A stretch of 63,505 nucleotides of DNA, filler included, from Folioceros fuciformis (Eukaryota): NCBI GenBank assembly GCA_049999805.1. It is 7 parts of 7 records of this genome, joined end to end, with 100 filler letters (N's around TTAATTAATTAA, not from the genome) between each part and the next. Parts side by side here need not be neighbours in the genome. Positions count along the whole stretch, not along the records: positions 46,849 to 58,906 come from JBNGIO010003179.1; 6 more parts are not named here. One strand, given 5' to 3'. A program made the translations under genes and the position numbers. Below, piece by piece: positions 95-59,006 of the stretch (position 1 is its first letter; each line of letters opens with the position of its first letter). The notes under the pieces were generated by a model. It searched no databases and was not told where the DNA came from. It saw only the letters and a program-made list of their open reading frames with translations.

Positions 95-3307
<3,213 letters not shown>

Positions 3308-28223: not shown

Positions 28224-28323
28224 NNNNNNNNNNNNNNNNNNNNNNNNNNNNNNNNNNNNNNNNNNNNTTAATTAATTAANNNNNNNNNNNNNNNNNNNNN
28301 NNNNNNNNNNNNNNNNNNNNNNN

Positions 28324-29407: not shown

Positions 29408-30015
29408 ATACGCACAAGAGAATTGCTACCTTGCTTTACTCCTGTGTGTGTGCAGGCAAGACAACTATAATCCTGCCATTTTCACCTCCGCCTTAGGACT
29501 TCTCCAAAACGGAGCATACATAAAGACCAAGTTACCCTCTGGATCACAATCAGCAGCATCAAGAATCATCTCAAGGCCTGGACACGGCAACAGCTTGCGG
29601 AAATCCTCCTCATCCGAAGTGGGAGGATTTAGAACCGAACACCTCTCGGCAAATCTTTTCTGCTCCCAGGCAGCAACGCCGACCAGTTCCAACAGCGGGA
29701 GCAATGGAACAAAGCTGCCATCCAAGTGAGAAATGCCGCCAACACTCAGCATAGCTGCAATCTGTTCTGCAGGCGGAAAGTATGCGAAAGACTGAGGACG
29801 GCCGGAGGTTGCGGCGTAAACAAGTTCACGACGGTGGGAATGCGGAATAAGTGGGGGTAACGAAATAAGGTTGCCCTAATATATCCCGCTTCCCGGCACT
29901 AAGCGTAGTCCTTAGTTAAATATACATATAGAATACGAACAGGCACGAACTGTGCCCTAAAGAACGATTACCCATCAACCGTCGTATAGGTTCACGGGAC
30001 ACGGCCATAAAGGCC

Positions 30016-34600: not shown

Positions 34601-36001
34601 CACCCACAATCTTTCCAATCAAAAGATTGTTTTTTTCAAAAGCTTTAATGCATCATAACTTTCAAATTAAAACCAAAATTAACCACAAAATCCCTCAACC
34701 AACTCCTAGTTACTTTGGATAGTCCTTGAAAACTTTGTATCTAAACATACAACACTCATTCCTAAGTTCGTCAAGTGCTTCACTTACATTGACCCCTTCG
34801 CTACCCATCTATGACAAGTTAGCACATCTAGCCATTTACTCCCCCAAACTTCAATCAATGAACCTCCAATCAATGAACCTTCCCTTGAATCCTCAAGAAC
34901 AAACGAGGCATTCTTTTAATAGTGACAAATTTTGTGATATCAGTCCGACTTCACTTTGTACCACATCATTGCAATCTTTTCACACATGTGTCAATGCAAA
35001 TTTGTGACACAAAGGCTTTGATTCAATTGTTTAGTTCGCTAAGGCTTCTCACGCAGTCACGGTTGGCAAGAAATCTTGAACGTCTAATAGCTTACAAAGT
35101 TGTCTTCGCGAACTATCAAAAGAATGCCCAACTACCTCTTACGAACCCTCATACAGTTGTCAACAATCCATTTGCAATTACTACCTAGGCGAGCATTCTG
35201 AATGAATACTAACTGTTCATAAAGTTAACTTCCAAAATAACTGTCTATCAAAAAATCGTCTTTCTATTATAACTTTTCATTTGCTCGTTGTGCACTTAGA
35301 TTTAACATAGTGACTTTATTCTCCATGCTCATTCTCCACTGTTTGTTGACTTCTATGAGCTCCATTTGCGCAACAAGTTCAAACAAGCACAACCTTCCAT
35401 AGATTTTCCAACTCATGACAACCCGTATCTCTCTTTCAAGCTTTACATACTTATGCGATAATTTTATTGAATAAAATTATCACATAAAATTATCTGATAA
35501 GCTGGAATAGAATAGACAATAAGATAGTATGATGTAATCAAATAATCATTAATATTCAACATAGATTTTTTATTTTTATAATATTTATTAAATAATATTA
35601 TTAAATTAATTCAGGTTAAATTTAACTTTATTATCATATTTTAATCTCACGATGAAAATCCTTCCTCAATCGACTTTAATAAAATTCTTGTTCTTTTCGG
35701 TTTAACCATACCATACCACACAAGCTAATGCCGTCGATAGGAGACGACGGGTAAACAATACGAATATATAAAGCAAGAAGGTGAAAGTAGTATGTCTTTT
35801 CTGGCCCCTGTTAATTGGACAATGCGCAGGGTTGCGCAGTAGACTACCGTGATTCGGAGGCGCAGGTCAAGATGGGCATGCTGCGCGTGCCCTACACTTA
35901 GCTCGTTTTTCGCCAGTGAACGAGGTGGGTGGAAGCTGGGCTTGGGGCGGGCTGTCAAGCATGCCATATCAACCAGGTCCAGCCTCCTGTCAGAGAATGT
36001 G

Positions 36002-38986
36002 ATGGGCAACAGTGCGTCGCGTGTGGTGGGGTGCTTCGGTTCTCAAGCATATGATGACGGAGAAGGCCCGGGGGTCGCATCCTCCGGGACGTTGGATGAA
36101 GGCTTGGGTCACTCTTTCTGCTACATTCGGCCTGCGTTGGACTCGCCTTCACTTTCGCCGTCCCACTCGCTTCAACCTGCGGAGCTTGTGGACAAAATTG
36201 GTGTGGAATCCGAGCTGACGGAGTATGATGCCTCTCACGAGCACCACTTGGACGACTCGGCGCCGAAGAGCCGAGCTGGGCCTGACAAGTCTCGAGGGCT
36301 TTCAGACAGGCCCAGAAGTTCTTTTGAAAAACTCAAGCCAGTGTCAGAGACATCCTTCAAGTCTATCTCAGGGGCCTCTGTCAGCGCCAACACGGCAACA
36401 CCTCGCTCCATGCTATCCAATGAGCAGTTCACCACTTATTCAAGTATACATTTTGATCGCGCAGCCGATTTCAAGAGCACAGCCTCTTTCAGTGCCCTTC
36501 CTCTGCAGCCAGTGCCCAGAAGTGTGTCCATTTCAGGACCGCTCAGCTCAGGCCCTTTGTCGGGGCCACTTGACCGAGGTTTTCTCTCTGGGCCATTGGA
36601 AAGGGGATTCATGTCAGGTCCACTAGAGCGGGGTTTCCTGTCAGGTCCCCTGGAGCGAGGATACTTGTCTGGCCCATTGGAGCCAGTGGATCGCAGCCAC
36701 TTCTCAGCTCCCTTAGGAGGACGCTACTCTGGCTACATGAGAAGGAGGCGGCATTCGTTATCAAAATTCGTCAAGGCGGTAAGTAAGCCTTTCAAGAAGG
36801 TGATTGCAAAGACGTCTGCCAGGCTCGCACGCACTCAGAAGTCCTTTCTTTTCGGGGATAAGCGGCTCAGAGATGCTCAAGATTCCCCTCCGGACACGGG
36901 GTATACGTCCTCGGAACTCGAAACGAGGGCAAATGATAACCTTCAGTGGGCGCAGGGAAAGGCTGGTGAGGATCGGGTTCACGTCGTATTATCTGAGGAG
37001 CATGGGTGGCTTTTCGTCGGTATTTATGATGGTTTCAATGGTCCAGATGCGCCTGACTTCCTTATGAGCAACCTCTATCCTGCTATTTACAGGGAACTTA
37101 AGGGGCTTCTTTGGGACCAGGACGGATTTGAGCTTCAGAACAATGAGGAGCAAGAACATCGGGCAACTGGTATATGTCAAAATGGCCTGTATGGAAATGG
37201 AAGTGACATGTCAGGCAGCCAAGAAGAATGTTATGTGGCTGTTCAAGAGGCTGAGAGCGGTCTTTTGGGACTGCATGCTGTGGTGGATAATAGAGATTTG
37301 CTTAGTGCGGCTAACACTGGGTCGGAAGAACCAGGAAAAGACGGTTTGCTCCTAGATGGGAAGAAAACAGTAGATGAGCAGCCTGGGCAAAAATCCCTAC
37401 GTAGTCAACTCCTTATGCCTCTTGAATTTGAAGACAAACAATTGCTTGTTGAACAGGAAGGGACATCCAAGAAGCTCCAAGGGCAGGGAAGCTCGACTTC
37501 CTCAAGTTTGTGCCCAAAGCAAGTGCCCATGGGAATGATAACCACGCAGCATCCCGATAAGAGGAAAAGTATTCAGAAAAAATACTTGCAGTGGAGGTAT
37601 GACTGGGAACAAGACAAGCTGCGTGGAGACAGTAACCTTGCTGATGGGAAGAGGGAAAATGAGCACACCCAAACATGTACCTGGAGTAAGGGTGTGGCTG
37701 ATCATTCAGCTGTGTTGGGAGCACTTGCACGGGCTTTAGGGGCCACAGAAGATGCTTACCTGGACATGGCTGACCAAGCTTTGGAAGAAAACCCGGAACT
37801 GGCTCTTATGGGGTCCTGTGTGTTGGTTATGCTTATGAAGGACGAGGACGTGTATATTATGAATGTCGGGGACAGCCGTGCCATTTTAGCACAATACCCC
37901 AAGGTGGAACCTTTTGACCCGTTGCTAAAACCAAGCAGATACCACAATATGGCCCACTCTAACTCTAGTAAGTCTGAGGACCATGATAGGATAGGAGCAA
38001 GAGACTCTTTGTTGCGTCTGGAACTCGAGCGCATTATCGAGGAGACTCCAACTGAATTAGCTGCCCTGGAAGCTTATGACGCAGGCAAAATGGGTCCTCC
38101 TTCCTCAGGGCAGCTGTTGGGTGCCTTGCAGCTGTCTTCGGATCACAGCACCAGCATACATGAGGTTATTGAAACTTTACTACATCACATGCTTATTTGT
38201 ACAGATTCTTGCCTCAGCAGAGATGTTGAATTTTGGCGTTCTGTATTTGTGGCGCAGGAGGTGTTGAGAATCAGAGCAGAGCATCCTGATGACGATTCAT
38301 CAATTTGCAATGATCGCGTCAAGGGCAGTTTAAAAGTTACTCGTGCTTTTGGGGCAGGTTTTCTCAAGCAGGTATACCCTTCTTTACTGAGGAAGGTGCG
38401 ATTAAGTTGGACAGCTGTGGACCTTGGGCTGATGATTTGAGAATGTTGTTTGCTTTGTGGCAGCCAAAGTGGAACAGTGCTTTGCTGGAAATGTTCCGCA
38501 TTGACTTCATTGGTACCACCCCATACATCATTTGCACGCCGTTCTTACATCACCATAGGCTGGGCCCTGACGATCATTTTTTGGTGCTTTCATCTGATGG
38601 CTTGTATCAGTACATGAGCAATGAGGAAGTCATCTCCCATGTCGAATGGTTTATGGAGAAGTTTCCAGATGGCGATCCTGCCCAGCATCTTATAGAAGAG
38701 GTTCTCTTCCGGGCTGCCAAGAGTGCAGGTAAGCATCACAGATAAAAAGACAGATCAAGGACTGTAGTTCCCTGAGACTGCGTGTAGTACCTTTTTGACA
38801 TCATAGTTATATAATCTCCTCTCTGATTCAGCAAGTTGCCCCGTTTGGGTGTTTGAACTGGCTACTGTAGGCATGGATTTTCATGAATTACTGGATATTC
38901 CTCAAGGGGACCGGCGAAAGTACCATGATGATGTATCAGTGATGGTCATATCCCTTGAAGGCAGGATATGGAGATCATCAGGCTAA
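36002..38986 (+). CDS. PLL: POLTERGEIST-like (POL/PLL, clade C) protein phosphatase 2C, about 885 aa
   Basis: Exons 36002-38164, 38258-38371, 38464-38728 and 38871-38986, all GT-AG. Motifs: [12 protein letters not shown] (N-acylation type), [15 protein letters not shown] repeats, [102 protein letters not shown]. Confidence 0.96.
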
Positions 38987-41522: not shown

Positions 41523-41622
41523 NNNNNNNNNNNNNNNNNNNNNNNNNNNNNNNNNNNNNNNNNNNNTTAATTAATTAANNNNNNNNNNNNNNNNNNNNNN
41601 NNNNNNNNNNNNNNNNNNNNNN

Positions 41623-44600
41623 TGGATTTCAAGCTTCTTACCTTGTTAAAACCATCTTTGCTTGCTAACTCTGTACACAAAGGTGTAGCCTGCAAGCATG
41701 CAACGAAAACAAGTAAAAAACATATGTTTGGAAGTCCTAATTCTTGTCCACCCTGCTCTATATATGCTTACAATAAGTGGGAGATTAGAAATCAGAAAAT
41801 CAGAAACGGAATTCAACAACAAGAGTCAGAAGCTAGACCTGTAGCTGACAGACTCCCTGATGCTGTCAACATACTGTAACTGAGCTGCATGTGCATTACA
41901 TGTTTGAAGTCGTTAGTTTTCTAACCCCTGCAAAGCCATCACCGAATCTTAGTAATTTTGGGAGTAGCTAACCCAAAAATACCAAAGGGGTAAAATGGCA
42001 TTTGCAATAGATACCTTATCTAGCTTGGGTGGGGAAGGGTTCAAGGAGAAAGATAGGTTTGGAGGTCAGGATTACGACATATGGGTAATCCGCATGAAAG
42101 GGGCCTTACAAAATAGGAAGTTGTGGAAGGTAGTCATTGGGGAAGAGAAGGCCCCAGTGGCCCCCACACCTCCCACATTACCTACAGCTGCTGAGAAAAA
42201 GTTAATTGATGCATGGGATGCAAAGGATGAGGCAGCTATGTTCCTCATTAGGAGTGGTCTTACCTCAGAGATGTTAAGACAGACTTCAGGATGTACAACC
42301 TCAGCAGAAATATGGATAAGACTTCAAGACCTGTATGCAAGCAATAACCATACAAGTCAAATGACAGCTTTGAGAAATTTACAATTATGTAAAATGAGAG
42401 AAGGAGAATCAATCGAAAAGCACCTTGGACACTTTAGGACACTTGTGTCCAGACTTGAAAGTGCTTCAAACGAGGTTGTTAAAGATGATACACTAATACT
42501 TTACTTCCTCATATCCTTACCAGACTCTTGGTCACATTTTGTGACCTCCTTCAATGCCTCGAGACTCCAGACTGAGAAACTTGCAAAGGCAGCAGGTGTA
42601 ATCCTGCCAGAAACCAGCTTTGCAGAGTTAGTGGGAACCTTATTGCAAGAAGAAGCAAGCAAATCTTACAACAGACGAGCTGGTAAGCAGCAAGCCCTCT
42701 ATACATCCAACAGAGGACGTGGAGGAGGAAGACCCTATAACAGGGGTGGGGGCAGTACCTCGAGAGGTGGTGGTTCACAAGGACGTGGAACCAGCCAGAG
42801 AAAACCCAAAAGGACAGGAACTTGCAACTGGTGCAAATTACCTGGTCATTGGGAGCGTGAGTGTAGGAAAAAGCAGGCTGGTGTACCTCGCAAGGAGGGT
42901 TCGACCAGTGCTGAGACTCGCATGGTTGTTAAGAAGCAACCAACCCCCTCTGTTCTCACAGTTGGTACAACAGTGTTTGCCACAAGTTCATCCTTGTCAC
43001 CTGCTTGTTTGTCAGCAAATACAAAGGTTAAGTATACCATAGATTGGTACTTAGACACAGGGGCTACTGCCCATATTTGCCTAGACAGAAAAGCATTTCA
43101 AACGTACAAATCAGTTAAGGATCAGTACGTATACCTGGGGGATGACAGATCTCTGGTGTCTCCTGGCATTGGAACAATAGAACTGCATGTTCCATCAGGA
43201 AATGTATTAGTGTTGCATGATGTGTACTATGTACCAGACATGACACGTAACCTCATTTCAGTCAGAAAGCTGAATTCTGATAATCACTGTCACATTCTCT
43301 TTACTCAAACAGAATGTCAAGTATTAGATGCCTTTAATCATACTAGAGTACTTGCCTTTGGGTCTTCTGAGAAGGACTTGTTCCGTCTACATACAGATAG
43401 AAGTATACCATTTTCTCATTTGACCAAGGATGCTACTCATGCATCTGCACAGCAAATAGAAAAGTCAAAACTATGGCATTTACGATTAGGGCACCCACAT
43501 TCAGCAAAATTACAGAAATTAGCTGTAAGTGATCTTTACCAGCATGGGCAGATAGGTCCTCTGGTGCCACTTCCTTTGTGTGAGTCTTGTGTTCTCTCAA
43601 AGTGGCATCAAGCAGCCTTTAAGAACAAAGAACCACACAGAGCTACAGATGTCCTGGAACTTGTTCATACGGACTTATGTGGACCACTATCACAAGAATC
43701 CATTGGTGGTGGCAAGTATTTCCTGACATTTACAGATGACAAGACAAGGTTTGTAACAACCTATATCTTAAAGCAAAAGAGTGAATGCTTCAGCTATTTT
43801 AAAGAATATCTCAAGTATGTTGAAAGGTGGACTGGAAAACAACTAAAAACCCTAAGATCTGATAACGGGGGAGAGTTTACCTCAAACGAGTTTCAGGACT
43901 ACTGTTTAACTGAGGGTATTGGACGCCAGCTTACAGTTGTCTACACGCCTCAACAGAATGGCGTGGCTGAGCGGCTCAATCTTACGTTGCAGGAGATGAC
44001 ATCTTCTCTCCTACATCATGCTCAGCTGCCCCTGCCATATTGGGCAGAGGCCATTATGACATCAACCTATCTCAAAACCAGACTGCCTACCACTTCAGTA
44101 GTTGATCTTACCCCTTATGAAGCGTTCACAGGGCGCAAGCCATCCATACTTCACTTGCGTATCTTTGGTTGTAAAGCATACGCCTTTGTTCCTAAGGAGA
44201 AAAGAAAGAAGCTATTAGACAAGGTTAGAAAACTTCTGATGTTAGGCTATACAAAGGGCATCAAAGCATATAAACTTTATGATATACCTAAAAATAAAGT
44301 TATCTACGCTAGGAGCGTTACTTTTGATGAAGGTAGCACTTGGGCCTCAGTGGGAGTATCCCAGGATCCTCCTCTTGGTGACGAAGAGGCATCAGCGTTT
44401 CAAGATTCACACTTTGACCAGACTGATCATGGCACTCAAGTTGTTCCTGTTGAGGATGTTGCCCCTGTGGGTGGGGTAGATCCGGCTGATGATATTGATG
44501 ATTCAGCAGGTTTTGATGATGTAGCTGTAGAACCTGCACAACAAGATGTTCCAGACAATCATCAGGATCAACAGGACCATCATCCTCCAAAACCAATTGC

Positions 44601-46748
44601 TGATCCGACTGAGCCTACCTTAGATGCTGAGCTTGTTGACCCTCCAGTTGCTGAAGAACCAGTTAGAAGGTATCCCACCTGCCAGCGACAACCTCCTGAC
44701 TACTACCGTGCTCCGGATTTCCGAGCTTCTTCTTCTCATGTGACTGTCAATGCTGCCACTTCTCTTGATCCCATTGAGCCTCAATCCTATGAAGAGGCGT
44801 TGCGTAGACCTGATCACAAAGAATGGGAAAAAACAATTCAATCAGTGTATGACTCATTAATGGAGAACGGAACATGGGAACTAGTGGAGTTACCTCCAGA
44901 AAGAAAGCTAGTTTCATGCAAATGGGTTTTCAAACTGAAGGTTAAGGCAGATGGTACCTTCGATCGTTACAAGGCTCGTTTGGTGGCAAGGGAATTCTCT
45001 CCGATCCCTGGCTTGGACTATCTTGAAACGTTTTCTCCAGTAGGCAAGTTGTCCACTCTTCGAATTATCCTTGCCATATCCACACATTACGATTATGAGT
45101 TGCAAATGTACGATGTCAAAACAGCTTTCTTATACGGCAAATTAGACACAGAAATATACATGCAGCAACCGCCTGGATATGTAGTGAAGGGTAAAGCAAA
45201 CTATGCCTGTAAGCTGATCAAGTGTATATATGGGTTAAAGCAGTCAGCTATGAATGGAATGTTGCCCTAGATACAGAACTTCTACAGCTTGGATTCACAA
45301 AGAGCCAGGCAGACAACAGTCTATACATATACTCGAAAGGAGAGGTTATATGCTATCTGGCAGTCTACGTGGACGATCTGATACTGTCCAGTAATAGTCA
45401 GGCCTTTATAACAAGCATTACAGATGTGTTGGCCACTAAGGTTAAGATGTCTTGTTTGGGACCCTTACAGAGCTGCCTTGGAATACACATTCAGAGGGAT
45501 AGAAAACAACGGGTTATGACTCTTACTGAACCATGTTACCTTCTTGATTGTGTTGAACAGCTAGGTTTAAAGGATGCCAAGCCTGCATCGACACCCATGG
45601 CAGCAGGTCAGAAACTTAGCAAGGCTATGTCATCAACTACACGTGATGAGAAAGAACAGATGAAGGGCGTACCTTACAGACAAGGTGTTGGCAAGCTTAT
45701 ATACGCTAGTAACACGACGAGACTTGAAATAGCTTATTCTACAAGTGTACTCTCCCAGTTCTTGGAAGATCCAGGACTGAAGCATTGGACAAGTCTTAAG
45801 CGTGTGTTCAGATACCTGAAAGGAACACCCAGATTAGGTATCACGTACAAGTATCAAGAAGGAAAAGCATTGGACCTGGAAGTCTTTACTGACTCTGATT
45901 ATGCAGGTGATATTGATAGCAGTAAATCAGTATCTGGTTACCTGATTACAATTGCTGCAGGGCCAGTTTGCTGGTCAAGCAAAAAGCAGCCTACAGTCGC
46001 TCTTTCTTCGACAGAAGCAGAGTATCGTGTACTGGCTGCAGCAGCAAAAGAGGTAGTTTGGTGTAAGCTACTGTTTAAGGAGTTAGGCATCCCGATCCCA
46101 ACTTGTACCACAACACAAACCGACAACCAAGGTTCGATGGCTTTAGCCAAGAATCCAGTGTTCCATGCACGAACGAAACACGTGGAGGTGGAATACCATT
46201 ACATCAGAGGACTGGTAGCAGAAGGAAAGATTGAACTTCAGTATGTCTCAACTCAAGAAAACCCGGCAGACATACTTACAAAGGCTTTGAGCAGAGATGC
46301 TCACAATAAGCACATTCAGCGTCTTGGTATGGGAGAGGCACAAGCCTTCTCATCCAATACAATCTAACAAGAAACCTAGCCTAAAACACCGGTGACTCAT
46401 AGCCATCAAAATAAGCAGAGCATCCAAAGTCTATCTCGTCTCCAGACTGCTGGGATTCGGAAGTAGACTCATCTTCTATTGGGTAAGGGTTGTGACAGCC
46501 ACCAGGTGACAGATCTCTAGGAAAGCCAGGATGGACTCTTTTCTTGAGAGGGGTTTCTTCAACTCTCAGCCTTTCTTCCTTCTTAGCCTCCTCCCTGAGT
46601 CTGAGAGTAGACTCTGAATGTAAACTGAGAAACAAGAAGATTGTAAGTAATCCTGCAAAAGATAACAGCAACAAAAGGACTTGATACAGCAAGCAAGAAC
46701 AGCAGCAGCTACTTACTATACGTGCTGACCACATGGACAGGGATGTTC
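41623..46748 (+). mobile_element. Nearly intact Ty1/Copia internal region; gag-pol 41995-46367 with a single frameshift near 45250
   Basis: gag FKEKDRFGGQDYDIW, zinc knuckle CNWCKLPGHWEREC, protease WYLDTGATAH, integrase LWHLRLGH..CESC..LVHTDLCGP..TDD..RSDNGGEF..NGVAER, RT CKWVFK..YGLKQS..YVDDLI, RNase H DSDYAG..EAEY..DNQG..ADILTK. Both ends fall in gaps. Confidence 0.96.
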
Positions 46749-46848
46749 NNNNNNNNNNNNNNNNNNNNNNNNNNNNNNNNNNNNNNNNNNNNTTAATTAA
46801 TTAANNNNNNNNNNNNNNNNNNNNNNNNNNNNNNNNNNNNNNNNNNNN

Positions 46849-49200
46849 TGGGGGCGGCTGCAACCCCTGCCTCTAGCTCTAGCTAGGGCATGGCCTCCAC
46901 AACCGTTCATGCCAGCCAAGCAATCAGCCAGCCTATCGTCAGACCCTGACCCCTGACACTGACACACCCAGATACCCCTTCCTATGTTCAAACCATTATT
47001 ATATTATTATATTATTTTAATATTATTATATTATTATTTAATTATTTAATATTATATCTTTAAATAATAGTAAACTAATCACCCAACCCTATGGCCCGGT
47101 ACCGAACCTAAACCTTCCCAGGTCTGGGACCAAACCTATACCCACTCTTATAACCAAACCAACTATTTCCTGGTCAATTAACTTAATTAGCACAAAGAAA
47201 AATAGGAAAAATGACCAGAAAATCAAGGAAAATTAGGGAAAATAAGTTGAAAAAGAAAACCAAACCATACCACTATTAACCCTTTTTCAACCAAAACAAA
47301 CTACTACCCCAAACTTTGGAGGTTCACAAGCACCTTGGGGTTGCTTTGATGAACTAGGAGGGTACTAATGCAAGCCTGTCCTTGAATAATTGTGTTCCCC
47401 TCGTAACTCTTGTTGAACAACATTGAAGGAAGAACCAGTGTGCTATACACCCCTCTTCCTAAATTTATAACCACAACCTACAATTCCTTTGTGGACCACC
47501 TAGCACAATAGCTTAACTCACTGTCATTAGACTCCGCAATTTCTATAGCGAGCAGCACGTCGTCCACCTTCACAGGTGCATACGATCATATGAAGGAAAA
47601 AGATCGGTTCAACGGACAACACTTCCCCGTGTGGCGCACACGCATGAAGTCCATCTTGATAGGTCGAGGTGTTTGGAAGATTGTCGATGGCACCCTTCCA
47701 AAGCCTGACCCTTTTGCCACTCCACCCCCGCTAGTCGCTGTTGTTGAGAGATGGGAATATTTGAACGGGATCGCAATTGCTCTCCTCATTAGTGGACTTG
47801 ACTCGAGTCTAGTGCCTAGCGTAGAGTTCCTCACGGAGGCTTGTGCAATCTGGGACCAGCTATCAAACACATACAATGTTAACAATGTTCTGACCTTGTA
47901 TAGTGTAAGGTAGGAATTCAACTCGTTAAGGATGAAGGAGACAAATACAATCTCTGTTCATACCTTGAAGTTCAGACTTCTGCGAGGGCAGCTTGCCTCC
48001 CTTGGCTCAACCATGTCGGAGACCAATGCCACTGCACAGCTGCTAATGAGCTTACCACCGTCTTACAAAAATTTCGTGACCAACCTGATGTTGGTATCAA
48101 CTCATGGTAAGTCAAGTACACCCTCCACCCTTACAATGGAGGACATTATCGGCGCTCTGTATCAGAAGGAGTAGAGCCGCCTTAGCTCTGTAGGAGGGTC
48201 CAAGCCCAAGGCAGACATGGCGCTTTCTACCCGCTTCAAACCCGGGAGGAAATCAAAGGGCAAGGCGAACTTCATCCCTAAAGGTGACTCAACCTCTGTC
48301 CCTCCTCACCGAGCTCAAAATTGCAATTGGTGCGGAGCTGCTGGCCATTGGGCACAAGAGTGCCACAAGAAAGAGGCCGGAGAGCCGCAAAAGGCTGACC
48401 TGAGATAGGTAGCCAGTATTGCAGTTAAGGGGAACGCCAACACAATGGAGACAAAAACCGTAAAGATACTTACGGTCTGCCTCAACACCCAGTTGCATCA
48501 GGATGCGGGGTGGTATCTGGACAATGGAGCCACAGCCCACATATGCAACAATCGTACTCTATTCACCAAGCTGAATACTCGTCCTCTCAGGGAAAGGGTG
48601 TTACTCGGTGACAAACATAGTAGATCTAGCTTGCTAATCATGGGACAAGGCACTTTCAAATTTCCCCTTGAGGACGGTTTAGTGCTTACCTTGGAGCCTT
48701 TGCTCCTAGTCCCACAGATGGGCAAGAACTTGGTCTCCATGATTCAACTGCCGAAGCAAGGCGATCTTAAGATGCTTGCTTCAAGGGGGGTCATGCTACT
48801 TTTTAGGACCACAAATATTGACTTGTGCCTCTTCAATGTCGTGCCTCAAGATGGCCTATACAGGCTCTCATTAGCCTTCAGAGGGAGCGCATCAAAGAGG
48901 AGCATCGCACTCCCTGGGAGATAGCCTCCACCACTGGTCAAGTTACGTTCATCTTAAGAGGGAGTGTTAAGGAATGGATAATCTGCCCGTAACCCTGCCG
49001 ACCAGCTAGTTACCGTAGGCCGTAATTAATAGTGTTTAATAATTACGAACATGTGTGCCTCTTCGGAAGAGACACCCAGTGACACTATTTAAGACACACT
49101 TTGTATACACCTTCTGCAGATTAAAACACGAAATATCTTTTTGAGCATTGCGTCTTTATCATGCTAGACTAGATGCAATCCTATTGCTAGGATTTTCACA
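46849..49200 (+). mobile_element. Internally deleted Copia (gag plus protease only) with PPT and 3' LTR
   Basis: gag MKEKDRFNGQHFPVW.., CNWCGAAGHWAQEC and WYLDNGATAH. There is no integrase or RT before the PPT AAGAGGGAG (48956-48964) and LTR 48965-49200 (TGTTAAGG..TTTTCACA). Confidence 0.82.
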
Positions 49201-49935
49201 GTACTCAAGCTGTTAAAATGCATATATAGGCTTAAGCAAAGTGGGAGAGTATGGTACCTTACTATGCACGAGTATTTGCTTAGCATCAATTTTGTCCATA
49301 ACAGTGCAGATACCAATGTCTACAAGCTCGCTGAAGGGTCTTCTATAGTTGTCTTGGTATTGTATGTGGATGATGTTATCTTTGCCACAAACAACCATAA
49401 GCTACTATCAGCTGTTAAGGACAAACTCAGCCACAAGTTTAATATGCAAGAGATTGGGGGGTTGAAGTTTTGTCTTGGCATACAACTTCTTCGTCTTAGA
49501 TTTGAAGGTTTACTAATCCTTCACCAATACAATATGTTAATGAAACCCTCAAGAAGTTTAACTTAGACCAGGCACGCCTAGCCACTACACCTTATGTTGT
49601 AGGGACCAAGCTCACTCGACTTCACTGTCCTACAACAACAGAGGAGATAGAGGACATGAAAAACATAACTTACAAACATGTAGTTAGGAGCCTTATTTTT
49701 GTCGCCAATTGAACAAGGTCTGATATGCAATTTTAAGTAAGCACAGCTTCTCATTTCCTTGAAAATCCTAGTAGGCCCGATTGAACAGCAGTCAAACGGA
49801 TATTCCGTTATCTCAAGGGCACACACCAAACAGGATTGATGTATAAACATACTGGGACATCCCAACTTACTCTCACAGGCTTCACTGATGCTGACTAGGC
49901 ATCTGATCAAGACTCCAGACATAGCTTGTTTAGTT
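49201..49935 (+). mobile_element. Decayed Copia RT fragment, host of the preceding insertion
   Basis: Resumes mid-domain as VLKLLKCIYRLKQSGRVWY, then LVLYVDDVIF, LKFCLGIQ, VKRIFRYLKGT, GFTDAD*ASD. Confidence 0.85.
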
Positions 49936-51355
49936 ATGACATAAGCTTCACACCAGGATAGAGATTCTATCAAAGGAAGGGAAGGATTCCTGTAGAGATT
50001 TCCCTTAGACATTTGAATGAGTTTTTGGCTATTAAGATGTCCTAATCTACAATGCCAAAGTACGGTGATATTGCAGGTTACAAAATTTTGAGAAGCTACA
50101 TGTATACTATCATGTGAGGATCCCACTTTGGCAGACCAATAACCCGTCCTCTAAAGTGCCTGTGCAGATGTTGAAAGATTCACCTGGAAAACAAGCGATT
50201 AGACAACTATCTGCATTTAAAATGACTTGCAGACAATGTTCTAAACATAATCTAGCGGCTGACACAAATTTTTTTTACAAATGGATGGTACGTGAAGGAC
50301 ATTAGAGAGAGAGAGCAGTTGGCTTGAAGAACATCTGAGAGTGACTGAACCTCCACTAGAGATGAGAAGGTTGTGGTCATTGCCCAATAGGACAGTCTGG
50401 TACCCGATTATTGGCGAATTAATGGTCTAATTAACTTAATCACACATGTCCAGAGTGTCATCTAAGTCATTTGTCCCCATATTTCTTCGAGTATTTCTCA
50501 AAATAGCACTTTGAGTTGTGACAAATAATCTATAGGAGGGTGGCAAGGAGGATAATAGAACCACGAAGCAATTTAGCTCGAAAATCTTTGTATTAGCCTC
50601 AAGTTGAGATCGTGCCATGCGGAAAGCATTGACATGATGTTCAATGGAGTCTGACTCCTTTATCTTGAGGTTGTTGAAGTTGCGAGTAGCTGTCATGAGG
50701 CTCATGACATCTCTGGAAGAATATAACTGGCCCTAAACCCTAAAATTAAACCAATATGATTGGTAATCTTCGCAGCAAGATAAGTAATTGAATCATTTGT
50801 GGAGTCTTCCTACTTTAGACATTGCAATTCATGGCTCTTATGATCTCGCTTCCATTTTGCAGCCAAATCTACTCTCCAAAATCTATGCTTGGATGTATAT
50901 GAATCCATTTGGAGAGACTTGAATGCACAAGTTGTGTATTATGAAGATTTGAGCATAATAAAGTTGATATTGCATATGAAGCCTTCTTGGAGCATGTTTG
51001 AATATTAAAATGCTTCTAGAATAGAGTAGGCATAGGAGATAATGGCTTTATAGATAGCAAGCAAAATGCTTAAGAATCAAGAGCAATGTGCCCTGATACC
51101 ATGATGAGAATCAATAGCTCTTAGGCATAAGAGATACAATACAATGAATTAATTGAAGAGTAAAGTGCAAGCCTTTATATAGGCTAAGTGGTTAGGCGGT
51201 TATAACAATATGTTGTTATAACCACCAAGTTGTTGTAACTAATGTAAAACTAACTACCTAGACAAAATAGGTAACTACCTAATGCCCTAGGCATAATTAA
51301 TGTTTAAGTAATGTGGCCCTAATGAATAGTGCCCTAAACTAAATATATTTCATCA
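49936..51355 (-). mobile_element. Decayed Copia 5' part: LTR, PBS, gag and pre-integrase remnants
   Basis: LTR 51102-51355 with TGATGA..TCATCA inverted ends, PBS TGGTATCAG at 51093-51101, gag RNFNNLKIKESDSIEHHVNAFR..LLSSLPPSY, and LWHCRLGHLNS. Confidence 0.83.
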
Positions 51356-52900
51356 GTACTGTTATATAGGATGTGAGGAAATTATTCTAGCAAGGAGGGA
51401 GCGAGAAGAGGATTTGGAGACAAAGTTCATCATTTATCACAGCTTTCCCTATAGCCCCTTCTACCCTAGATGCTGATGATCTAAAGGTACTTACATGTTT
51501 CTCTATTGAATCCCCTTCTTTCATGATATATGTTTGGAAAGCTTGCGCTGCTGACATCATGTTGATAACATTTTGTCCAGCATAAAGATCTTCCAACCTA
51601 GACTAGATTTGGGCAGAAGTCTTAGCCCCTCTAGTTTGTCTCAACATCCTTGATGCTAGACCACCGTGAATAAAGTACAAGGCCTCTTCATTTTTGGTTG
51701 ACCATGCATATGATGCCAAACCTCCTATAGACTTATCTTCCTCACCCTTAGAGAGTTTCCAAAGCTTATTGCATTGGAGAACACCTTTCATGCGCATGAC
51801 CCATATATCATAATCTATGCCATTAAAGTGATCCTTTTCTTTGAATCCTACATAATTTGAGGATGATGATTGTGCCATGTTGAAGGCGCACTTGATAATC
51901 TGCAAGTAACTGGAATTTCTCTTTCTCTAGGTATATCTCTCTCCTTTCTCTTATGTCTAAACAGGTAGAAGAGTTCTTTTACAACAGCCACACTAGTGCA
52001 ACAGACCGATATAACCTAGGTTCCAAGGTTCAAGGTTTAAGTTCCAAGGTTTGATTCGATGCTCTCAGCTCATCAAATATCCTAGTATTCCTCATCACCC
52101 ACTTATTATATGCATAAGTTAGGCATGAAGGACATGAGTTAGGTTGATCAAACTTATGCTCACGTCTTGTTTTGTTAGCATGCTTACACGTTGTTTACCT
52201 AAATGCAAGATTTTTCAACAACTCAGGCTTCAATAATGTAACTAGCTTGTAATCAATGTGAGCAATTTGTCCCTTCAAATCATGAACATCTACGCTGATA
52301 CTAGACACATGTCCATCAATTTGATAAACGTCTTTCTACATTTCTACTATTTGCCTCAATGTGTTCTATTGATGTATTGACACTTACATGTGGTGCAACC
52401 TATGCAGTTAAGAAACCATGAGGACTACCATTTGCCCCAAAGGCTCTGCTTACCCGTACTCCAAGCAAGTTTTTTGGATTTCTCAGAGGGAGAGGGAATG
52501 CCAAGTCTAACTCTTGTGGAAAAAGAGTTTCAACAATTATGTTGAAAGCATCCTTGTATGTTTGTATTTGGTGTGTAGGGTTTCTGAAACGCCATTCATA
52601 CACAAGTTGACATAGATTTTTCCTCAGCCAGACAACTTGCCAAGATCAAAACAGAGTTTGTAACCCAAAGTATCAACCTGAATTTGGAAAGGGGCTGTAG
52701 GAGGATGAAGCGTAAAGGTTACCTAATCTCCTGTCTAGCCCATGTTGACCCTGCATCCTTCAGTCTTCATCAAAATCCACCTCTTTGAGCCTGTTTAGCA
52801 GCCTGATAGTGTTCTCCGACTGCTTGACTAGGCCTTGTCTCCTAAGAAAAATAAGGAATGCTAGAAACGTGTAAAGGTAGCTTGACATCGTGTGTGCAAT
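51356..52900 (-). mobile_element. Decayed Copia gag N-terminus and leader, interrupted by the element at 49936-51355
   Basis: FKEKDHFNGIDYDIWVMRMKGVL..TSAQI*..MKEGDSIEKHVSTFR..LFSLPP, closely similar to the gag at 41995. Confidence 0.8.
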
Positions 52901-53009
52901 AGCCAGCAAGCAATAAGGAATAACAAAATAATGAATTGGATAAACATCAATGAACATAGAGTTGTTTATATAGTTTAAACCTAATACGCCTAGGTTAACG
53001 TATATTTTT

Positions 53010-56000
53010 CATACTCCCACATAACCTAGGCAGTATTTAAGAACTGAATGAAACGTGCATCGTGTGAAACAGTGAGCATTATGCTTTTGAAAACGGAACG
53101 GGAAGCTCAAACGACGGGGTCTTCCACTCGCAGAGAGCAGTGCCAACACCATGTCTCAACTACTTACCGTCGTCGCGCTCGTAATAGCTGTGTTCTGTAT
53201 CATCATCCAGTGGCAAGAGTTGATGACGACGAGAAGCAGAGCGCGCTACCAGCTTGTAGAAGGTGAGGAGCTGAGCGCCAAAGAAGGAGGCAGAAGGAAG
53301 AAGTCTGCGCTTAGGGCAGAGTGGTGCAAGCCCATGGAATGAAAACTTTTCAACCTGCAGCACTATTTGAGGAGCTGGCGGCAAGTGTTACTATGAGGAA
53401 GACCTCAGAGACTAACAGGCACAACTTGCCAATTGGGAAGGAAGAGGTGGTTGACCTAGGAGACATTCCTGCAGTGGACCCTCTCAGGGGCATGAGAGTG
53501 CGATGGCGTGAAGCGGTCAATACTCCGCTGCCCGCCGAAGATGGGGAAGAGGAAAAGGTTCCTGCTGAAGTTGTAAAGCTGTCTCAAGAGATGATCAGGC
53601 TTTCACACAGAGACAAAGGGAAAAGGACGCAAGGTTAGGTAAGGACTATTGGCTTCATCCATGCTCCTTTTCCTGTGTGCCGAAAGCAGGAGGGTAATGA
53701 ATGACCTGTAGATTGTGTTTGTGTGTATCGCAGGACACAAGTAGATAGGAAATGTAGGAAAGTTTGTCAGTTGAGGCTGCAATATGTAAAACCTAAATTA
53801 TAAGGGGGTTTTTGAGATCAGAGGACATAGGCCCTCACCCCTCCCACACAGTCCAGGTCAGTTGTTACCTTCCAAGTAGGTGGCTGAAGTCTTTAAGTCC
53901 AAGCGATTCCATGTGCAATCTGTGCTTTAGCTTAGGCAGCGCTTTTGTCAAGATATTGGCTATGTTCTCAGCAGTGGGAACATATGCCAATTGGATAACT
54001 CCTCTTGCAGCTGTGTCTCTGATATTGTGGTGCTTGATCTCGATGTGTTTCGTCCTTGCATGAAATCTTGGATTGGCAACCAAGGCAATTGCGAAAATGT
54101 TGTCACAGCGAAGGATTGTGGGTTCCAGCTGCTCAACATGAAGATCCTTAAGATAAGCATGCTCCCACTCAGCCTCCTTTGCAGAATCAGTAAGAGATAT
54201 GTCTTCTGCTTCAGTGGAAGACAACGCGATTGACTACTGTTTCTTGCAGGACCAGTTCACTGCAGCACCAGCTAATAGGAAGCAGTATGTGGAAAGACTC
54301 TTCCTAGAGTCAGAGTCTGAAGCCCAATCAGCGTCCGTGTATGTAGATAATTGAAGACCTGAAGGTGACCCAACTTGATAGAAGAGTCCAATTGTCATGG
54401 TACCCTTGAGATAGCAGTAAATCCGCTTCACAGCTGCCCAATGCACACATCCAGGCTTCTCCATGAACTGAGATACAGCACTAACTGCGTATGAGATGTC
54501 TAGCCTGGTCCAATTAGAAATGAAGATTAGGCAGCCTACTGCATGCCTGTAAGGTATGTTCTCTATATCAGCAATCTCATCAGCAGATGTGGCACATTGG
54601 TCCACAGTTAACTTGACTCCCACAGAGCCTGGTGTCGAAACTGGACGTGCTTGATCAAGTTGAAACCTCTTCAGAATCTCAGCCAGGTATTTCTTTTGAT
54701 GAATCACGATCAGACCTGCGTCTCTGCGATGTAGAACCTGAACACCTAGGCAGAATTTTAACTCTCCCACATCCTTCATCTCAAACTCAGTGCTAAGGAG
54801 ATTTTTAACGGTGGCTAAGATGGATGTGTCTGTGCAAGCAAGATACAATCATCTACATAAATGGCTAAGATGCAAAAGGTTGAACCATCTACAAGGTAGT
54901 ATACAGAAGAGTCTGCAGCACTCTAAACAAAACTGAGCTTCTTGAGATGAGTATCCAACCTTTTGTTCCAAAGCATGGCGCTTGGCTTTAAGCCATAGAG
55001 GGCCTTAAGGAGTTTAAGTACCTTGTTGGGCCATTGCTTGTGAACATAACCTTATGGCTGCTCCATGTATATCTCCTCTTCAATTTCACCATGTAAAAAT
55101 GTTGTACAAACGTCCATTTGGTGCAGTTCTAAGTTGAGCTCAGCAGCAAGAGCAAGGATAATTCTAATACTCTGAGCTTTGACTACAGGAGAAAAAGTCT
55201 CCTGGTAGTCAAGGCCAGCAACTTGACTGAATCCACTAACACAAAGTCGAGCCTTGTAGCGGGCGATTTCACCATCAACATTCAGCTTTGTTTTAAAAAC
55301 CCATTTGCAGCTAACTGGTTTCCTCCCTTCTGGCAAGTTTTTAAGTATCCAAGTATTGTTCTTAATGATGGATTGATATTCCTCCTCTACTGTAGCTTGC
55401 CAGTGATGAGCATCATGTCCAGAATAAGCTTCATCCATAGAGGCAGGGTCAAGATGGAGAGGAGCACTTCCAGGGACTGCTGTATGAGCTGAGGGTTTAT
55501 GCCAAAAATCAAAAGACTCATAAGGTGGCTCGTGCCAGTGATCCCAAGGAATTCGGGCTCGCAAAGTATAACGAGGAAGAGGCGCAGCCTCAACAGGTAG
55601 TAAGGCCTTTTCCTTAGAATCTACAGTAGTAACTTGGGATTCTTGAAGCGCAGGTAGGTCAGGTTGCAAGTCATTGTCTAATGGTGGGATTGGATGTGGA
55701 ATTGCATCAACAAGCTCATCAATAAGATCAAGAGGGTGATCAACAAGGTCAGGAGGGTCTGGTGGATCTGGAAGTTGCACATAAGGTAGCTGATTGGGTG
55801 CAGGATCAGCAGTGCCGGGAAAGGTGGTCGGAGGAGTGGCAAATACGTCTATTGTGGATGATTCGTCATCTGATATATTAGAATCAGAGGAAGGGTGAAT
55901 GCCTGCGTTTGGGGAAACTGAGGTCAACAGCTCCTTAAAGACAATACTCCTAGCAAGAACAGGGGTAAGAGATTGCAGGGTCAATCATTTTGTATGCCTT

Positions 56001-58906
56001 GGCTTCATCCCCATAACCTACAAAAATCAAAGCTCGTGATCTATGATCAAGTTTCTGACGTTTCTCAGGTGGGATGTAGGCGTATGTAGGAGAACCGAAT
56101 ACCCTGAAGTGCATGATACTGGGCTTACGTCCCCAAAACATCTCAAAAGGCGTTTTACCTAGAAGGGAAGTTGTGAGAAGGCGGTTGAGGATGTAAGTGG
56201 ATGTGGTGAGGGCCTCTGCCCAGTACTCTGCTGGAAGTGAAGCCCAACTAAGCATGCTATGGGTCATGCCCATAAGGGTTTGATTCTTTCTTTCAGCAAC
56301 CCCATTCTGCTGGGGAGTGTATGCAACTGTCAGTTGTCGTAAGACACCATGATCTTGGAGAAAGGCATCAAAGGTATTGTTGCAGAACTCTGTTCCATTG
56401 TCAGTACGTAAGCATTTGAGAAAACAGCTAGACTGTCTTTGAGCCATGAAGAACCACTCTTTAAAATAGGGAAAGGTCTCACTTTTACGAGACATAGTAT
56501 ACGTCCAGGTAAAACGACTAAAATCATCTGTTATTGTAAGGTAGTATAAAGCTCCTCCTAAGGATTGTGTTTGCAGTTTACCAGAGATGTCGGCATGCAC
56601 TAGATCTAACAGCCCTGAAGTTCTGTAGGCATGTTGTGGAAACGGCTTCTCCTTCTGTTTGGCCAACAAACATGCTTCACATATGGGTAAGTCCTTAAAG
56701 CAAGAAGGTAGAGGCTCAACATAGCAGTCGTGTGTCGACATCTTAATGAGTGAATTTTTATTGACATGTCCAAGGCGGGCATGCCATAACTTGGCTTGTT
56801 CGCTGGCAGGTAGATATGCTGGTGAAGTTGATGTAATTATTGGTGCTGGAGATGAAGTCTCACAGATCGCATCCAAACGATATAGCTCCGAATCGGGGAC
56901 ACCTTGACCAATACACTGCTTAGATGAGGTACGTCGAAAAACTTCACATGTGGTGCCATGAAAACGAAACTCCAGATTGTGATGAATCGCCAAGAGCCTG
57001 ACTGACAGCAGATTTTTGGCCATGCCAGGAACATACAGTACGCCTGGCACATTGAGAACTGAATTGTCAGTCATAACGGATCGACAAGTACCATAGCCTT
57101 TAATAGGTAAGCTTGTTGATCGTTGTTCATCTCCAAGCAGGACAGATTGTGTGGAATTTGTAAGTTCCTTGAAGCTGCGAAATAATTGCTGATCTTTGCA
57201 AATATGTGCTGTCGCACCAGAGTCCAGAAACCAGCTACTAGGATCACTCGAAGAAGAAGACAAGCAAATGGTAAGAATCTTCACGACTGCCTTGCCATTG
57301 TCATGTTGAGGTCTTTCCTTTGTGACTGAATTGACTTTAGGCTTGGGACGACGGGGCTCGCCTGCCTTCTTTTTGCGGCAGTCCCTCTCCCAATGTCCTG
57401 GCACATTGCACCAATTACAATTGCCTGGTTTCTTTGTAGATGGAGTGCCAGTAGGGGAGGTTTGTGGGCGAGAAGCAGGTCGTCCGCCTCCTTTGCCCCT
57501 CCCTCTCCCAAAACCTCCACGCTAACGGGAGATATAGAGAACTCGATCAGTGCGCAGCTTGCTGGAGCCGCTCGAACTGATACGAAGTCGGCTTTGCTCC
57601 TCTTCATAAAGGGCAGCAATCACGGCCTCCAAGGAATAATTACTAGGGTGACTAGCAGCAACATTCTGGCCAGCAATGGCTAAGGGACCATTTTGTAGAG
57701 ATACAAAAGTCTGTTATGATGGGGGGAGCAAGAGCAAAAGATGAGCCACAGCATCCTCCTCTAAAATAGTCGAGTTCAACTGGGCAAGACGGGATCAAAG
57801 TTGTGGAAACTTGCTGGTGTGGGCAGCCACACTGTCACCCTCTCGCATTTTCAAGGTATAGAATTCATGTTTCACTGTGCACTTAGTCATCATATTCCGG
57901 ACAACATAAGTATTATTGAGTTGACTCCAAATCTGATGTGCCTCGGTAAGGTATTCCACGTCAAGAATCAGCACTTCGTCAAGGCCTATAATCAAGATGG
58001 CAACAGCAATTTCGTTCATTGTGTTCCATTTGTCTACATCAGCCTGTGTAACTTGAGTGCCTCCAATTGTGGTAGTGGTTCCAGCAACAGGAAGCACAGG
58101 CTCCACATATGTGCCGTCAACAACCGTCCACACGCCTCTTGCACGTAATGTAGTCTGCATTCGAACTCTCCATACTTCGAATTTAGTTCCATTGAACTTG
58201 TCAAGGCCTCTGAGGTCTATTGTGAAGGATGGAGTAGAGGAAGACATGCTGACTACAAATTGTGGCTGTACAAGAGGAAGAGGTGGAGGTGTCGAGGGAA
58301 TAGGGGCCGGATTAGGTGGTGGATTGGAAGGATGCACAGATTCTCGTCGACGATGGAGATAAGGTGACAGAGGAAAATTTAAAAGATGGTCTCTCGTAGA
58401 CATACATTAGGGAATTCACTACAAAACAAGTAGGGACAATTAGATCTGAAAAGACTTTTTTTTTTTAGGGTTTCAGCAGAAAAAAGTCTAACTTAAACTA
58501 CTGCCTTCTTTTCTAGGGCACGTTTGGATTCAGGTGAAGCGGTTAGTAACCGCCAATGAAAATAAATCAGCAGAAGAAAGGGGCCTGAAAACCACGAAAA
58601 TCAACAGACATCTGAATGCAAAGTGCCTACACTAGAAAAGGGTAGCAAATGTCAGTTCAATTTGATCGCTCCTCGTCAGAGGAGCAAAGGGCAATGTTCA
58701 AAATCTCAAATTGTCTAGAAAATTGACTAATTTCAAATGAAAATTTAGAGATTAATTTTTGAATTTTAAAATCTGCAGAATCCAAACACTTAGAAAATGT
58801 CTCTTGTCGCTGGACAACTACATTCAGGGTACCTTCTAGAATTTGTACCGCTGATTCATAATTCAATGCATCACTTGCAGATGTACTGGCTGGCTCAGTG
58901 CGTGGA
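53010..58906 (-). mobile_element. Ty1/Copia element with a full domain set broken by frameshifts and stops
   Basis: gag 58403-57795 (LDKFNGTKFEVWRVRM), CNWCNVPGHWERDC, WFLDSGATAH, integrase (LWHARLGH, ITDDFSR, RTDNGTEF, QQNGVAER), RT (CKWVFK, LHQMDV) and RNase H ending at 53865. There is a putative PPT GTGGGAG near 53014-53020; the LTR boundaries are unresolved. Confidence 0.92.
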
Positions 58907-59006
58907 NNNNNNNNNNNNNNNNNNNNNNNNNNNNNNNNNNNNNNNNNNNNTTAATTAATTAANNNNNNNNNNNNNNNNNNNNNNNNNNNNNNNNNNNNNN
59001 NNNNNN

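Follow-up and report, generated by a model that had tools for sequence, protein, structure and literature searches.

Does a Ty1/copia retrotransposon of Folioceros fuciformis carry a gene of its own on the strand opposite to gag-pol? The question is raised by positions 53151-53638 (plus strand) of the window, by which we mean the whole 63,505-nt stretch of DNA that was analysed. There, between the end of pol and the 3' end of a degenerate Copia element, a first-pass annotation had noticed two short open reading frames (ORFs) running antisense to the element, and had proposed that they form a membrane-protein module common to the lineage. We find that this Copia family probably has, or once had, coding sequence on the antisense strand in the stretch from pol to its 3' end, whereas its spread through the lineage did not hold up. 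That the segment is a small antisense accessory gene of the family, or a recently decayed one, is a reading suggested by base composition and layout; we put it forward tentatively, at somewhat less than an even chance. The features on which the question turns are the following.

53151-53342, plus strand: ORF1 (63 aa), on the strand opposite to the element, with a strongly hydrophobic segment at residues 4-19 (LLTVVALVIAVFCIII), then R28, R30 and R32
53339-53638, plus strand: ORF2, 99 aa, acidic/basic and hydrophilic, bearing a coding-type signature
53339-53342, plus strand: ATGA, overlap of the ORF1 stop and the ORF2 start, judged incidental
53865-58406, minus strand: degenerate Ty1/copia gag-pol (gag, protease-like beta-barrel, integrase, reverse transcriptase, RNase H)

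Both ORFs were found as first described. ORF1 opens in the context aacaccATGtc and its product begins with MSQLLTVVALVIAVFCIII, ORF2 spans 99 aa, and within ATGA the stop codon of ORF1 overlaps the first ATG of the ORF2 frame. The window consists of seven contigs (9281, 9234, 9508, 13199, 5126, 12058 and 4499 nt) placed end to end, and the contig under study is the sixth, of 12,058 nt (46849-58906). On its minus strand, Pfam matches follow one another in Copia order (Retrotran_gag_2/DUF4219, Pol_BBD, gag_pre-integrs, rve, SH3_retrovirus, RVT_2), and by the order and type of these domains the host element of the antisense ORFs is a Ty1/copia long terminal repeat (LTR) retrotransposon. Its last pol frame terminates at 53865 (minus strand), and the antisense ORFs lie 226 nt past this stop, within the repeat. 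They are placed between the pol stop and the end of the repeat, on the opposite strand, which is the position of an aORF-3R, the exact start of the LTR being putative.

The case for ORF2 is carried by a codon-position signature. Base composition differs strongly between the codon positions (G1 0.40, T1 0.07, G2 0.17), giving a base-by-position chi2 of 23.7. None of 807 shuffled ORFs of at least 85 aa reached this value (median 6.3, 95th percentile 14.0), and windows of real pol gave medians of 14.0 (n=20) and 8.3 (n=9). Under a position-specific model trained on the Copia and host ORFs of the window, ORF2 scored 0.124 bits/codon in its own frame, and the other five frames scored between -0.212 and 0.001. 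No shuffled ORF reached 0.124 (0/786, maximum 0.099), and ORF2 came first among the 98 short ORFs of the window. The signal extends over approximately 53290-53650 and is not bound to one motif. When windows of 297 nt were slid along both strands outside gene-coding and transposon-coding regions, only 2 out of 5816 reached 0.124, and both were on ORF2 (53291-53737, plus strand); for comparison, 17% of 121 windows in true coding frames did so. The signature, present in one frame of six, argues for real coding capacity in ORF2, and in ORF2 only.

Coding on the sense strand of the interval was considered as a source of this signal and rejected: the longest minus-strand ORF starting with ATG is 47 aa, and none of the minus frames scores above 0.001. 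The chi2 of 24.8 obtained in the complementary frame is the mirror image of the ORF2 pattern, and was likewise discarded as a sense signal.

ORF1 is distinguished by its hydrophobic start. The Kyte-Doolittle mean over 19 residues (KD19) is 2.74 for residues 1-19, well over the threshold of 1.6, and the other two frames give -0.26 and -0.74; the base composition of the stretch is balanced. No charge precedes the hydrophobic segment, and three arginines (R28, R30, R32) follow it. On hydropathy, ORF1 would thus qualify as a single-pass membrane protein with an N-terminal anchor, in line with the signal or transmembrane peptide first proposed. No other of the window's 103 ORFs of 60-130 aa has so high a KD19, and two of the 103 reach 2.5. 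In 3000 shuffles, this value was reached by 4 of 2740 ORFs of at least 60 aa, none of them on the plus strand. By each of the shuffle and in-window controls, both the frame-specific hydrophobicity at the start of ORF1 and the codon-position signature of ORF2 exceed what chance would give. ORF length is near chance (see below).

We asked how the segment relates to the rest of the element and to its sister copies. Depth was taken from contigs of public sequencing runs; of six listed, two contain parts of the stretch (shares 0.39 and 0.32), and no RNA run containing it was among them. It was 43-104 across 52970-53860, compared with 4-18 in the unique flank (up to about 52670), placing the segment at about 5-10 times the unique level. 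A contig of single-copy depth covers 51326-52871 with 0 differences, after which depth climbs from about 4-10 to 45-104. Thus the element ends near 52850-52871, and the spacer is part of the repeat. A 688-nt contig of a second run (depth 38.6) is gapless over 53461-54148, which means that the distal half of ORF2 is contiguous with RNase H in sister copies. What had been named beforehand as fatal to the proposal, a captured sequence absent from sister copies, is not what the repeat depth and this bridging contig show.

The copy itself is old and heavily decayed. In a tblastn comparison with the polyprotein of another Copia of the window, its gag-pol frames run 2, 3, 3, 2, which makes two frame changes in about 4.4 kb, and six in-frame stops are present (57797, 57716, 57524, 55054, 54925 and 54236). 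Together these amount to eight disabling lesions in gag-pol.

The inner boundary of the 3' LTR is less well placed. The first-pass annotation had set a polypurine tract and LTR boundary at about 53014; no LTR pair, 5' LTR copy or primer-binding site is detectable in the contig to fix the LTR start. Specifically, no LTR pair or direct repeats were detectable in 46849-58906, and the region behind pol (52600-53900) did not match the 700 nt that precede gag (58200-58906). No primer-binding site was detectable either, the best match to the motif being 8/12. The contig stops 500 nt upstream of gag, and the 5' LTR may be beyond it. Read depth fixes only the outer end of the repeat, at about 52850-52871. 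The assignment retained is as follows.

52850-53021, minus strand: probable short 3' LTR, putative; TG at about 53021, TATATAAA at 52968-52959, end of the repeat at about 52850-52871

By eye, this putative LTR and the end of the fourth contig have the motif 'atgtcaagcta' in common. Tandem Repeats Finder found no array in 52500-54000, and a search of the whole contig against Rfam, with E up to 1, gave no match.

How could ORF1 and ORF2, which lie in two frames, belong to one gene? Candidate splice signals on the plus strand offer a way of joining them, with these elements:

53034-53040, plus strand: TATTTAA, possible antisense TATA box 111 nt upstream of the ORF1 ATG (pattern match only)
53151-53262, plus strand: putative exon 1, 37 codons plus 1 nt, with the start codon and the hydrophobic anchor
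53263-53360, plus strand: putative 98-nt GT-AG intron, without a coding-like frame across it and of a length that fits inferred host introns
53361-53638, plus strand: putative exon 2, 2 nt plus 91 codons plus stop

The putative donor, AAG/GTGAGG (53262/53263), agrees with the consensus at 8/9 positions and is the sole donor of at least 7/9 that allows in-frame joins; donors of that strength number 51 in 2 x 63,505 nt, or 0.40 per kb-strand. The putative acceptor, ttttcaacctgCAG/CA (53360/53361), has the highest pyrimidine fraction (0.56) of the eight in-phase acceptors. Joined in this way, the exons would give an open frame of 390 nt and 129 aa (frame and length computed by script), with GCA as the junction codon. 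Loss of the intron would do away with the tail of ORF1 along with the ATGA and the two third-frame stops (53264-53266 and 53312-53314), and no coding-like frame is found across 53230-53350. Five introns inferred in a host EF-G-like gene of the first contig have lengths of 77-170 nt, donors of 5-7/9 and acceptor pyrimidine fractions of 0.56-0.72; a 98-nt intron would fit this genome, since it is within that range of lengths. For the two-frame layout we favour in-frame splicing over a stop-start pair, on these sequence features, and judge the ATGA to be an incidental by-product of the intron sequence.

A different gene, running in frame 2 from the ATG at 53048 or 53081 through ORF2, was also tried and rejected: two stops would need removal, the acceptors in phase have lower pyrimidine fractions (0.33-0.44), and little signal is seen upstream (0.05-0.07). 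A second TATA-like motif, again a pattern match only, is present at 52967. At its other end, the TAG stop of ORF2 is embedded in two overlapping donor-like sites, AAG/GTTAGG and TAG/GTAAGG (53633-53644, plus strand). Use of the first would extend the ORF2 frame into a further exon; no coding-like signal is seen beyond it on the plus strand.

That the family possesses its own spliced antisense gene, with a two-exon message starting at the 3' LTR and a 129-aa anchored membrane protein as product, is a more specific proposal and a more doubtful one, which we rate as possible. For transcription, splicing, translation, membrane insertion and any role, we infer the following course. The transcript would arise within the 3' LTR or close by it and extend toward pol. 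The message would carry exon 1, with the start codon, the N-terminal hydrophobic anchor (residues 4-19) and the arginines behind it; the 98-nt GT-AG intron would be spliced out; and exon 2 would add a charged, hydrophilic domain of 91 residues (pI 5.7, 15 K+R, 17 D+E). The 129-aa product would be tethered to the membrane by its N-terminus, with the charged domain presumably facing the cytosol because the positive residues sit behind the anchor. Splice signals are strand-specific. An antisense intron would go unseen by splicing in the sense genomic RNA, and would in this way survive retrotransposition, being copied faithfully at each round. As to the role, we would guess either at a protein that regulates the element's own cycle at a membrane, or at an antisense RNA with a further part in feeding silencing. 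The first-pass annotation had suggested movement, particle targeting or counter-silencing as possible roles.

Is the module shared by other Copias, as had been claimed? There are four Copia pol 3' ends in the window, and the comparison had been made with an ORF behind the pol of the Copia on the fifth contig, separate from the one under study (5,126 nt, 41623-46748). The relevant features are these.

46381-46734, minus strand: comparison ORF, 117 aa, behind the pol of another Copia on a different contig; judged compositional, no homologue
10203-10529 and 14870-15055: LTR pair of the Copia on the second contig, with its pol stop at 14848

The two Copias are 40-46% identical in reverse transcriptase and RNase H (46% in the RNase H part), and their antisense ORFs share no similarity, so that a lineage-wide module is not supported. 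Nor did the supposed match in layout survive. BLASTP between the ORFs was null, and the hydrophobicity of the 46381-46734 ORF is compositional: all three frames of this 40%-T stretch are hydrophobic (2.65, 2.15 and 2.29). That ORF has no codon-position signal (chi2 3.8, -0.019 bits/codon), and its open frame stays open up to 2 nt from the contig end, which makes its start provisional. We judge from these comparisons that it is probably unrelated to the 53151-53638 segment. The Copia that bears it is otherwise intact and shows one frame change within the reverse transcriptase, where frames of 1100 and 384 codons overlap by 55 nt (45213-45267); the change may be genuine, an error of sequencing, or a case of programmed frameshifting.

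Related elements gave no such ORFs, be it in the two other Copias of the window or in 69 metagenomic 3' regions. On the second contig the pol stop is about 20 nt before the 3' LTR, leaving no spacer, compared with an interval of 0.85-1.0 kb here. On the seventh, antisense ORFs in the 1.1 kb behind pol do not exceed 64 aa. The metagenomic set was made of 80 loci retained out of 475 with a confirmed RNase H relative, all 37-49% identical and none a member of the family; 69 of the 80 have at least 850 nt behind pol. Antisense ORFs of at least 99 aa were found in none of the 69, and KD19 values of at least 2.5 in none either, a result weaker than it looks, as the loci are redundant (26 clusters) and their spacers AT-richer (GC median 0.385, maximum 0.475, versus 0.49 here), making this a loose control. 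Antisense ORFs of at least 60 aa occurred in 11 of these regions, and sense ORFs of at least 60 aa in 23 and of at least 99 aa in 8.

A number of results weigh against an antisense gene, in the simple or in the spliced form. The whole finding rests on one degenerate copy. ORF1 lacks a codon-position signal (-0.026, a score equalled or exceeded by 43% of 1470 null ORFs), and its codon-usage score (-0.127) is non-coding-like. By 61-codon usage ORF2 scored 0.046 and was eighth of 98, below the 46381-46734 ORF (0.091, about fifth of 98), which no other measure favours; this score has low power, coding and non-coding distributions overlapping, and tells the ORFs apart less well than the position model. 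Among the sister-copy differences shown (1989 further ones lie outside these), the three well-supported ones in ORF1, at 53238, 53272 and 53281, none of them of the bisulfite type, are all non-synonymous in its frame; under the intron model one of them falls in exon 1 and two in the intron. If the transcript begins upstream of them, the ATGs at 53048 and 53081 precede the ORF1 start. The splice signals were chosen post hoc, in a purine-rich stretch that abounds in AG, hence the eight in-phase acceptors.

To the same side belong the homology searches. With E up to 10, Pfam gave no family, apart from two sub-threshold matches, for ORF1 and for a 72-aa frame. In 5.8 billion clustered proteins there was no homologue of ORF2, ORF1 or the 46381-46734 ORF; none was found among PDB sequences or, by tblastn, in the 80 metagenomic Copia loci; and collections of viral and prokaryote contigs held no relative of ORF2. 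Among 1.84 billion representative proteins there were only two hits (E 1e-5 and 5e-5), both to tandem-repeat proteins, one of them a bacterial cadherin/Big_9 protein; we discount them, because in such proteins weak per-repeat matches sum up. In an exact look-up, none of 10 proteins of the window was present in a collection of 15 billion, and as the source assembly is outside the protein collection, the protein searches carry no information on sister copies.

Could the ORFs be the work of chance? The interval of about 850 nt between pol and the LTR would then be a non-coding spacer, richer in GC and purines, and its features coincidences noticed afterwards. When 53014-53865 was shuffled 2000 times with dinucleotides preserved, ORFs of at least 99 aa arose on either strand in 267 shuffles and on the plus strand in 61, and 120 of the 2000 had one together with a second ORF of at least 63 aa. 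ORF length alone is therefore not more than chance. The interval has a GC content of 0.49-0.52, compared with 0.43 for the contig, its plus strand is purine-rich, and across 53091-53638 each of the six frames is open to an unusual degree. In the metagenomic Copia spacers, 3 of 42 ORFs of at least 60 aa (62, 66 and 140 aa) also reached 0.124, a further point against a gene. The lack of homologues in any collection searched, the missing coding signal of ORF1 and its visible non-synonymous differences all agree with chance. What such a spacer would not be expected to produce is the ORF2 signal, confined to one frame of six, out of reach of the shuffled ORFs (0/807 and 0/786) and, among the 5816 non-genic windows, found on ORF2 alone. 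Nor would it readily give a frame-specific hydrophobic segment of a kind seen in 4 of 2740 shuffled ORFs, or set these two independent rarities side by side on one strand, joinable in frame. We regard chance as unlikely, and as the best placed of the rival explanations.

If the signal is real, it need not be the family's own. ORF2 might be a captured relic, an exon of a host gene or of another element taken up in antisense and carried passively, unexpressed and unselected, with ORF1 unrelated to it. This would account for a coding-type signature that is confined to ORF2 and missing from ORF1, and in a copy with eight lesions in gag-pol an open frame carries little weight. That LTR retrotransposons transduce fragments of genes is established, according to the accessible part of PMC7264820, and the same text places one-off captures in one or a few copies, whereas the segment here is carried by a repeated family. 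In addition, no donor gene was found in the 1.84 billion representative proteins, Pfam or PDB, and the adjacent, rare hydrophobic ORF with its in-frame splice signals would be left unexplained. A captured relic thus appears decidedly unlikely.

A single ancestral antisense ORF of about 160 aa, broken by a one-base frameshift between 53315 and 53342, would dispense with the intron and make a scar of the ATGA. The open frames do overlap by 28 nt there (53315-53342), the tail of ORF1 is purine-rich and codon-like by eye, and with two frame changes in the 4.4 kb of gag-pol, a shift in 0.5 kb is plausible. This history is nevertheless improbable. The missing coding-like frame across 53230-53350 and the codon usage of the ORF1 tail (-0.252) tell against it, as does the position of the strong donor, exactly where the coding signal is lost, with the best acceptor restoring the frame. 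Furthermore, among the 12 best-supported sister-copy indels listed (53 more lie beyond those), none falls in 53151-53638.

Eukaryotic reinitiation after an ORF of 63 codons, as in caliciviruses and influenza B, depends on an upstream motif complementary to 18S rRNA. A stop-start coupled pair, translated from one mRNA by termination-reinitiation, is the least credible of all and very improbable here: it has in its favour the ATGA overlap, in which the first ATG of ORF2 does lie, and nothing beyond it. The core motif TGGGA is absent from 53240-53342, and the putative in-frame GT-AG intron explains the layout better and would remove the overlap altogether. We know of no other case of termination-reinitiation in LTR retrotransposons.

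Several observations were made on the sequencing runs and on the rest of the window. In one DNA run of the same sample (X3), the places differing from 50000-58906 are nearly only C>T (422) and G>A (392), the other types numbering 6-61. This is the pattern expected of a bisulfite-treated library, and the 'variants' of that run in the ORFs are not sequence differences. Another run (X4), guessed to be RNA, gave two contigs, both on pol at less than 90% likeness and none on the spacer, and has no bearing on expression. The contig under study holds more Copia debris, with gag, protease and reverse transcriptase pieces at 47512-49566 (plus strand) and gag, reverse transcriptase and integrase pieces at 49578-51926 (minus strand), which suggests nested or adjacent old insertions. 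A Pfam match to Gemini_AC4_5 (Geminivirus AC4/5 conserved region) lies within the Copia reverse transcriptase at 54669-54737 (minus strand), with 24.2 bits for a cut-off of 23. It corresponds to reverse transcriptase residues 38-60 of the frame at 54234-54848, and the family was probably built partly on sequence of reverse transcriptase type.

Elsewhere, the EF-G-like host gene used for intron lengths lies at 600-3200 (plus strand) in many short exons, with pieces of GTP_EFTU_D2, EFG_III, EFG_IV and EFG_C. At 35843-38742 (plus strand), an open frame of 865 codons is followed by an overlapping one of 143 codons, both with weak matches to PP2C phosphatases; the two frames probably belong to a single host gene, separated by an intron or a frameshift. 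Besides ORF2, the only stretches outside annotated coding sequence to score at least 0.10 under the position-specific model were 8799-9275 (minus strand), 29489-29845 (minus strand) and 33089-33657 (both strands). They coincide with ORFs of 159, 136 and 166/124 codons without Pfam match, and are possibly orphan genes or exons missed by annotation. At 7682-8173 there is a tandem array whose period is about 34 nt, with self-matches at multiples of 34 and 83-89% identity. The contigs are joined by linkers of the form N44-TTAATTAATTAA-N44, which a repeat search of the window scored as a 'repeat family':

9282-9381, 18616-18715, 28224-28323, 41523-41622, 46749-46848 and 58907-59006: 100-nt linkers between contigs

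As the window is a joining of seven contigs, inferences of neighbourhood across these points are void.

How does an antisense gene in this Copia family compare with known systems? Additional ORFs that lie antisense between pol and the 3' LTR are on record, in the accessible part of PMC7264820, for the Ty3/gypsy elements Grande (gene23), RIRE2, Retand and PvRetro13, where they are described as mostly orphans of unknown function with a presumed antisense promoter of their own; an antisense promoter in the 3' LTR of HTLV is mentioned there too, and env-like additional ORFs are treated in general terms. Grande is from maize, RIRE2 from rice, Retand from Silene and PvRetro13 from Phaseolus (PMC7264820 and PMC11963269, both as far as accessible). 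In Retand, the interval is 2.9-6.6 kb and a TRP28 domain is present in 97% of clusters (PMC11963269, same extent). The segment at 53151-53638 resembles these in its position behind pol, its antisense orientation, its carriage by a repeat family and its orphan product. It differs in belonging to Ty1/copia, in an interval of about 0.85-1.0 kb and in ORFs of 99-129 aa instead of more than 200 aa. No TRP28 (PF04195) or other DNA-binding domain was found in ORFs of 192 and 300 nt, compared with at least 600 bp for the Retand type, and no SMC or other domain either. There would be a hydrophobic N-terminal anchor and possibly an intron, and no nuclear localisation is reported. By the sequence, then, the case would differ from the Gypsy families by the criteria of size and domain content, and resemble them in position and orientation.

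In the part accessible to us, the work of Neumann et al. 2019 (PMC6317226) on 582 Copia elements counted extra ORFs from 250 codons upward and set apart a 3'R class; the frames considered here (63, 99, 129 if spliced, and about 160 codons) are all below that size. The aORF(-) of the sunflower element Athila 14 is described, in the accessible text of PMC11728184, as having one predicted transmembrane helix, in mid-protein, and a predicted type I topology. Both are (-) extra ORFs of LTR retrotransposons with a predicted single-pass membrane product; Athila, however, is Ty3/gypsy, its helix is mid-protein, and the two are likened by description only. In the literature searched, no antisense extra ORF, transmembrane or other, was described for Ty1/copia, none so small and none with an intron.

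Ty1/copia elements of the Sirevirus type have env-like ORFs on the sense strand, of several hundred residues, expressed from the element's own transcript. These too are extra ORFs behind pol in a Copia, with transmembrane segments; here the ORFs are antisense, and the sense strand of the interval has no ORF starting with ATG of more than 47 aa. Among retroviruses, HBZ of HTLV-1 is made from a spliced antisense transcript starting in the 3' LTR, ASP of HIV-1 is a hydrophobic antisense protein, and Vpu of HIV-1 is a small accessory protein with an N-terminal anchor and a short charged cytosolic domain. The proposed antisense start at the 3' end and spliced message would recall HBZ, the membrane product ASP, and the layout Vpu; these are vertebrate retroviruses, and the likeness is architectural only. 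With the overlapping stop and start codons of caliciviruses and of influenza B M1/BM2, the segment has the four-base ATGA in common, here in a cellular retroelement and with the tethering motif not found in 53240-53342.

In several Ty3/gypsy lineages, the additional antisense ORFs behind pol still lack an explanation. If the segment is not a gene, it is a caution that ORF length and a hydrophobic start in the spacer of a transposable element are weak evidence, as for the 46381-46734 ORF. If it is one, Copia elements too would recruit antisense accessory genes, and such genes may be far below the usual length cut-offs, so that surveys miss them. An antisense intron could then travel with a retroelement. 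The family would offer a cellular-retroelement analogue of the antisense and accessory proteins of retroviruses, and a short candidate for the interplay of retroelements with cell membranes or silencing.

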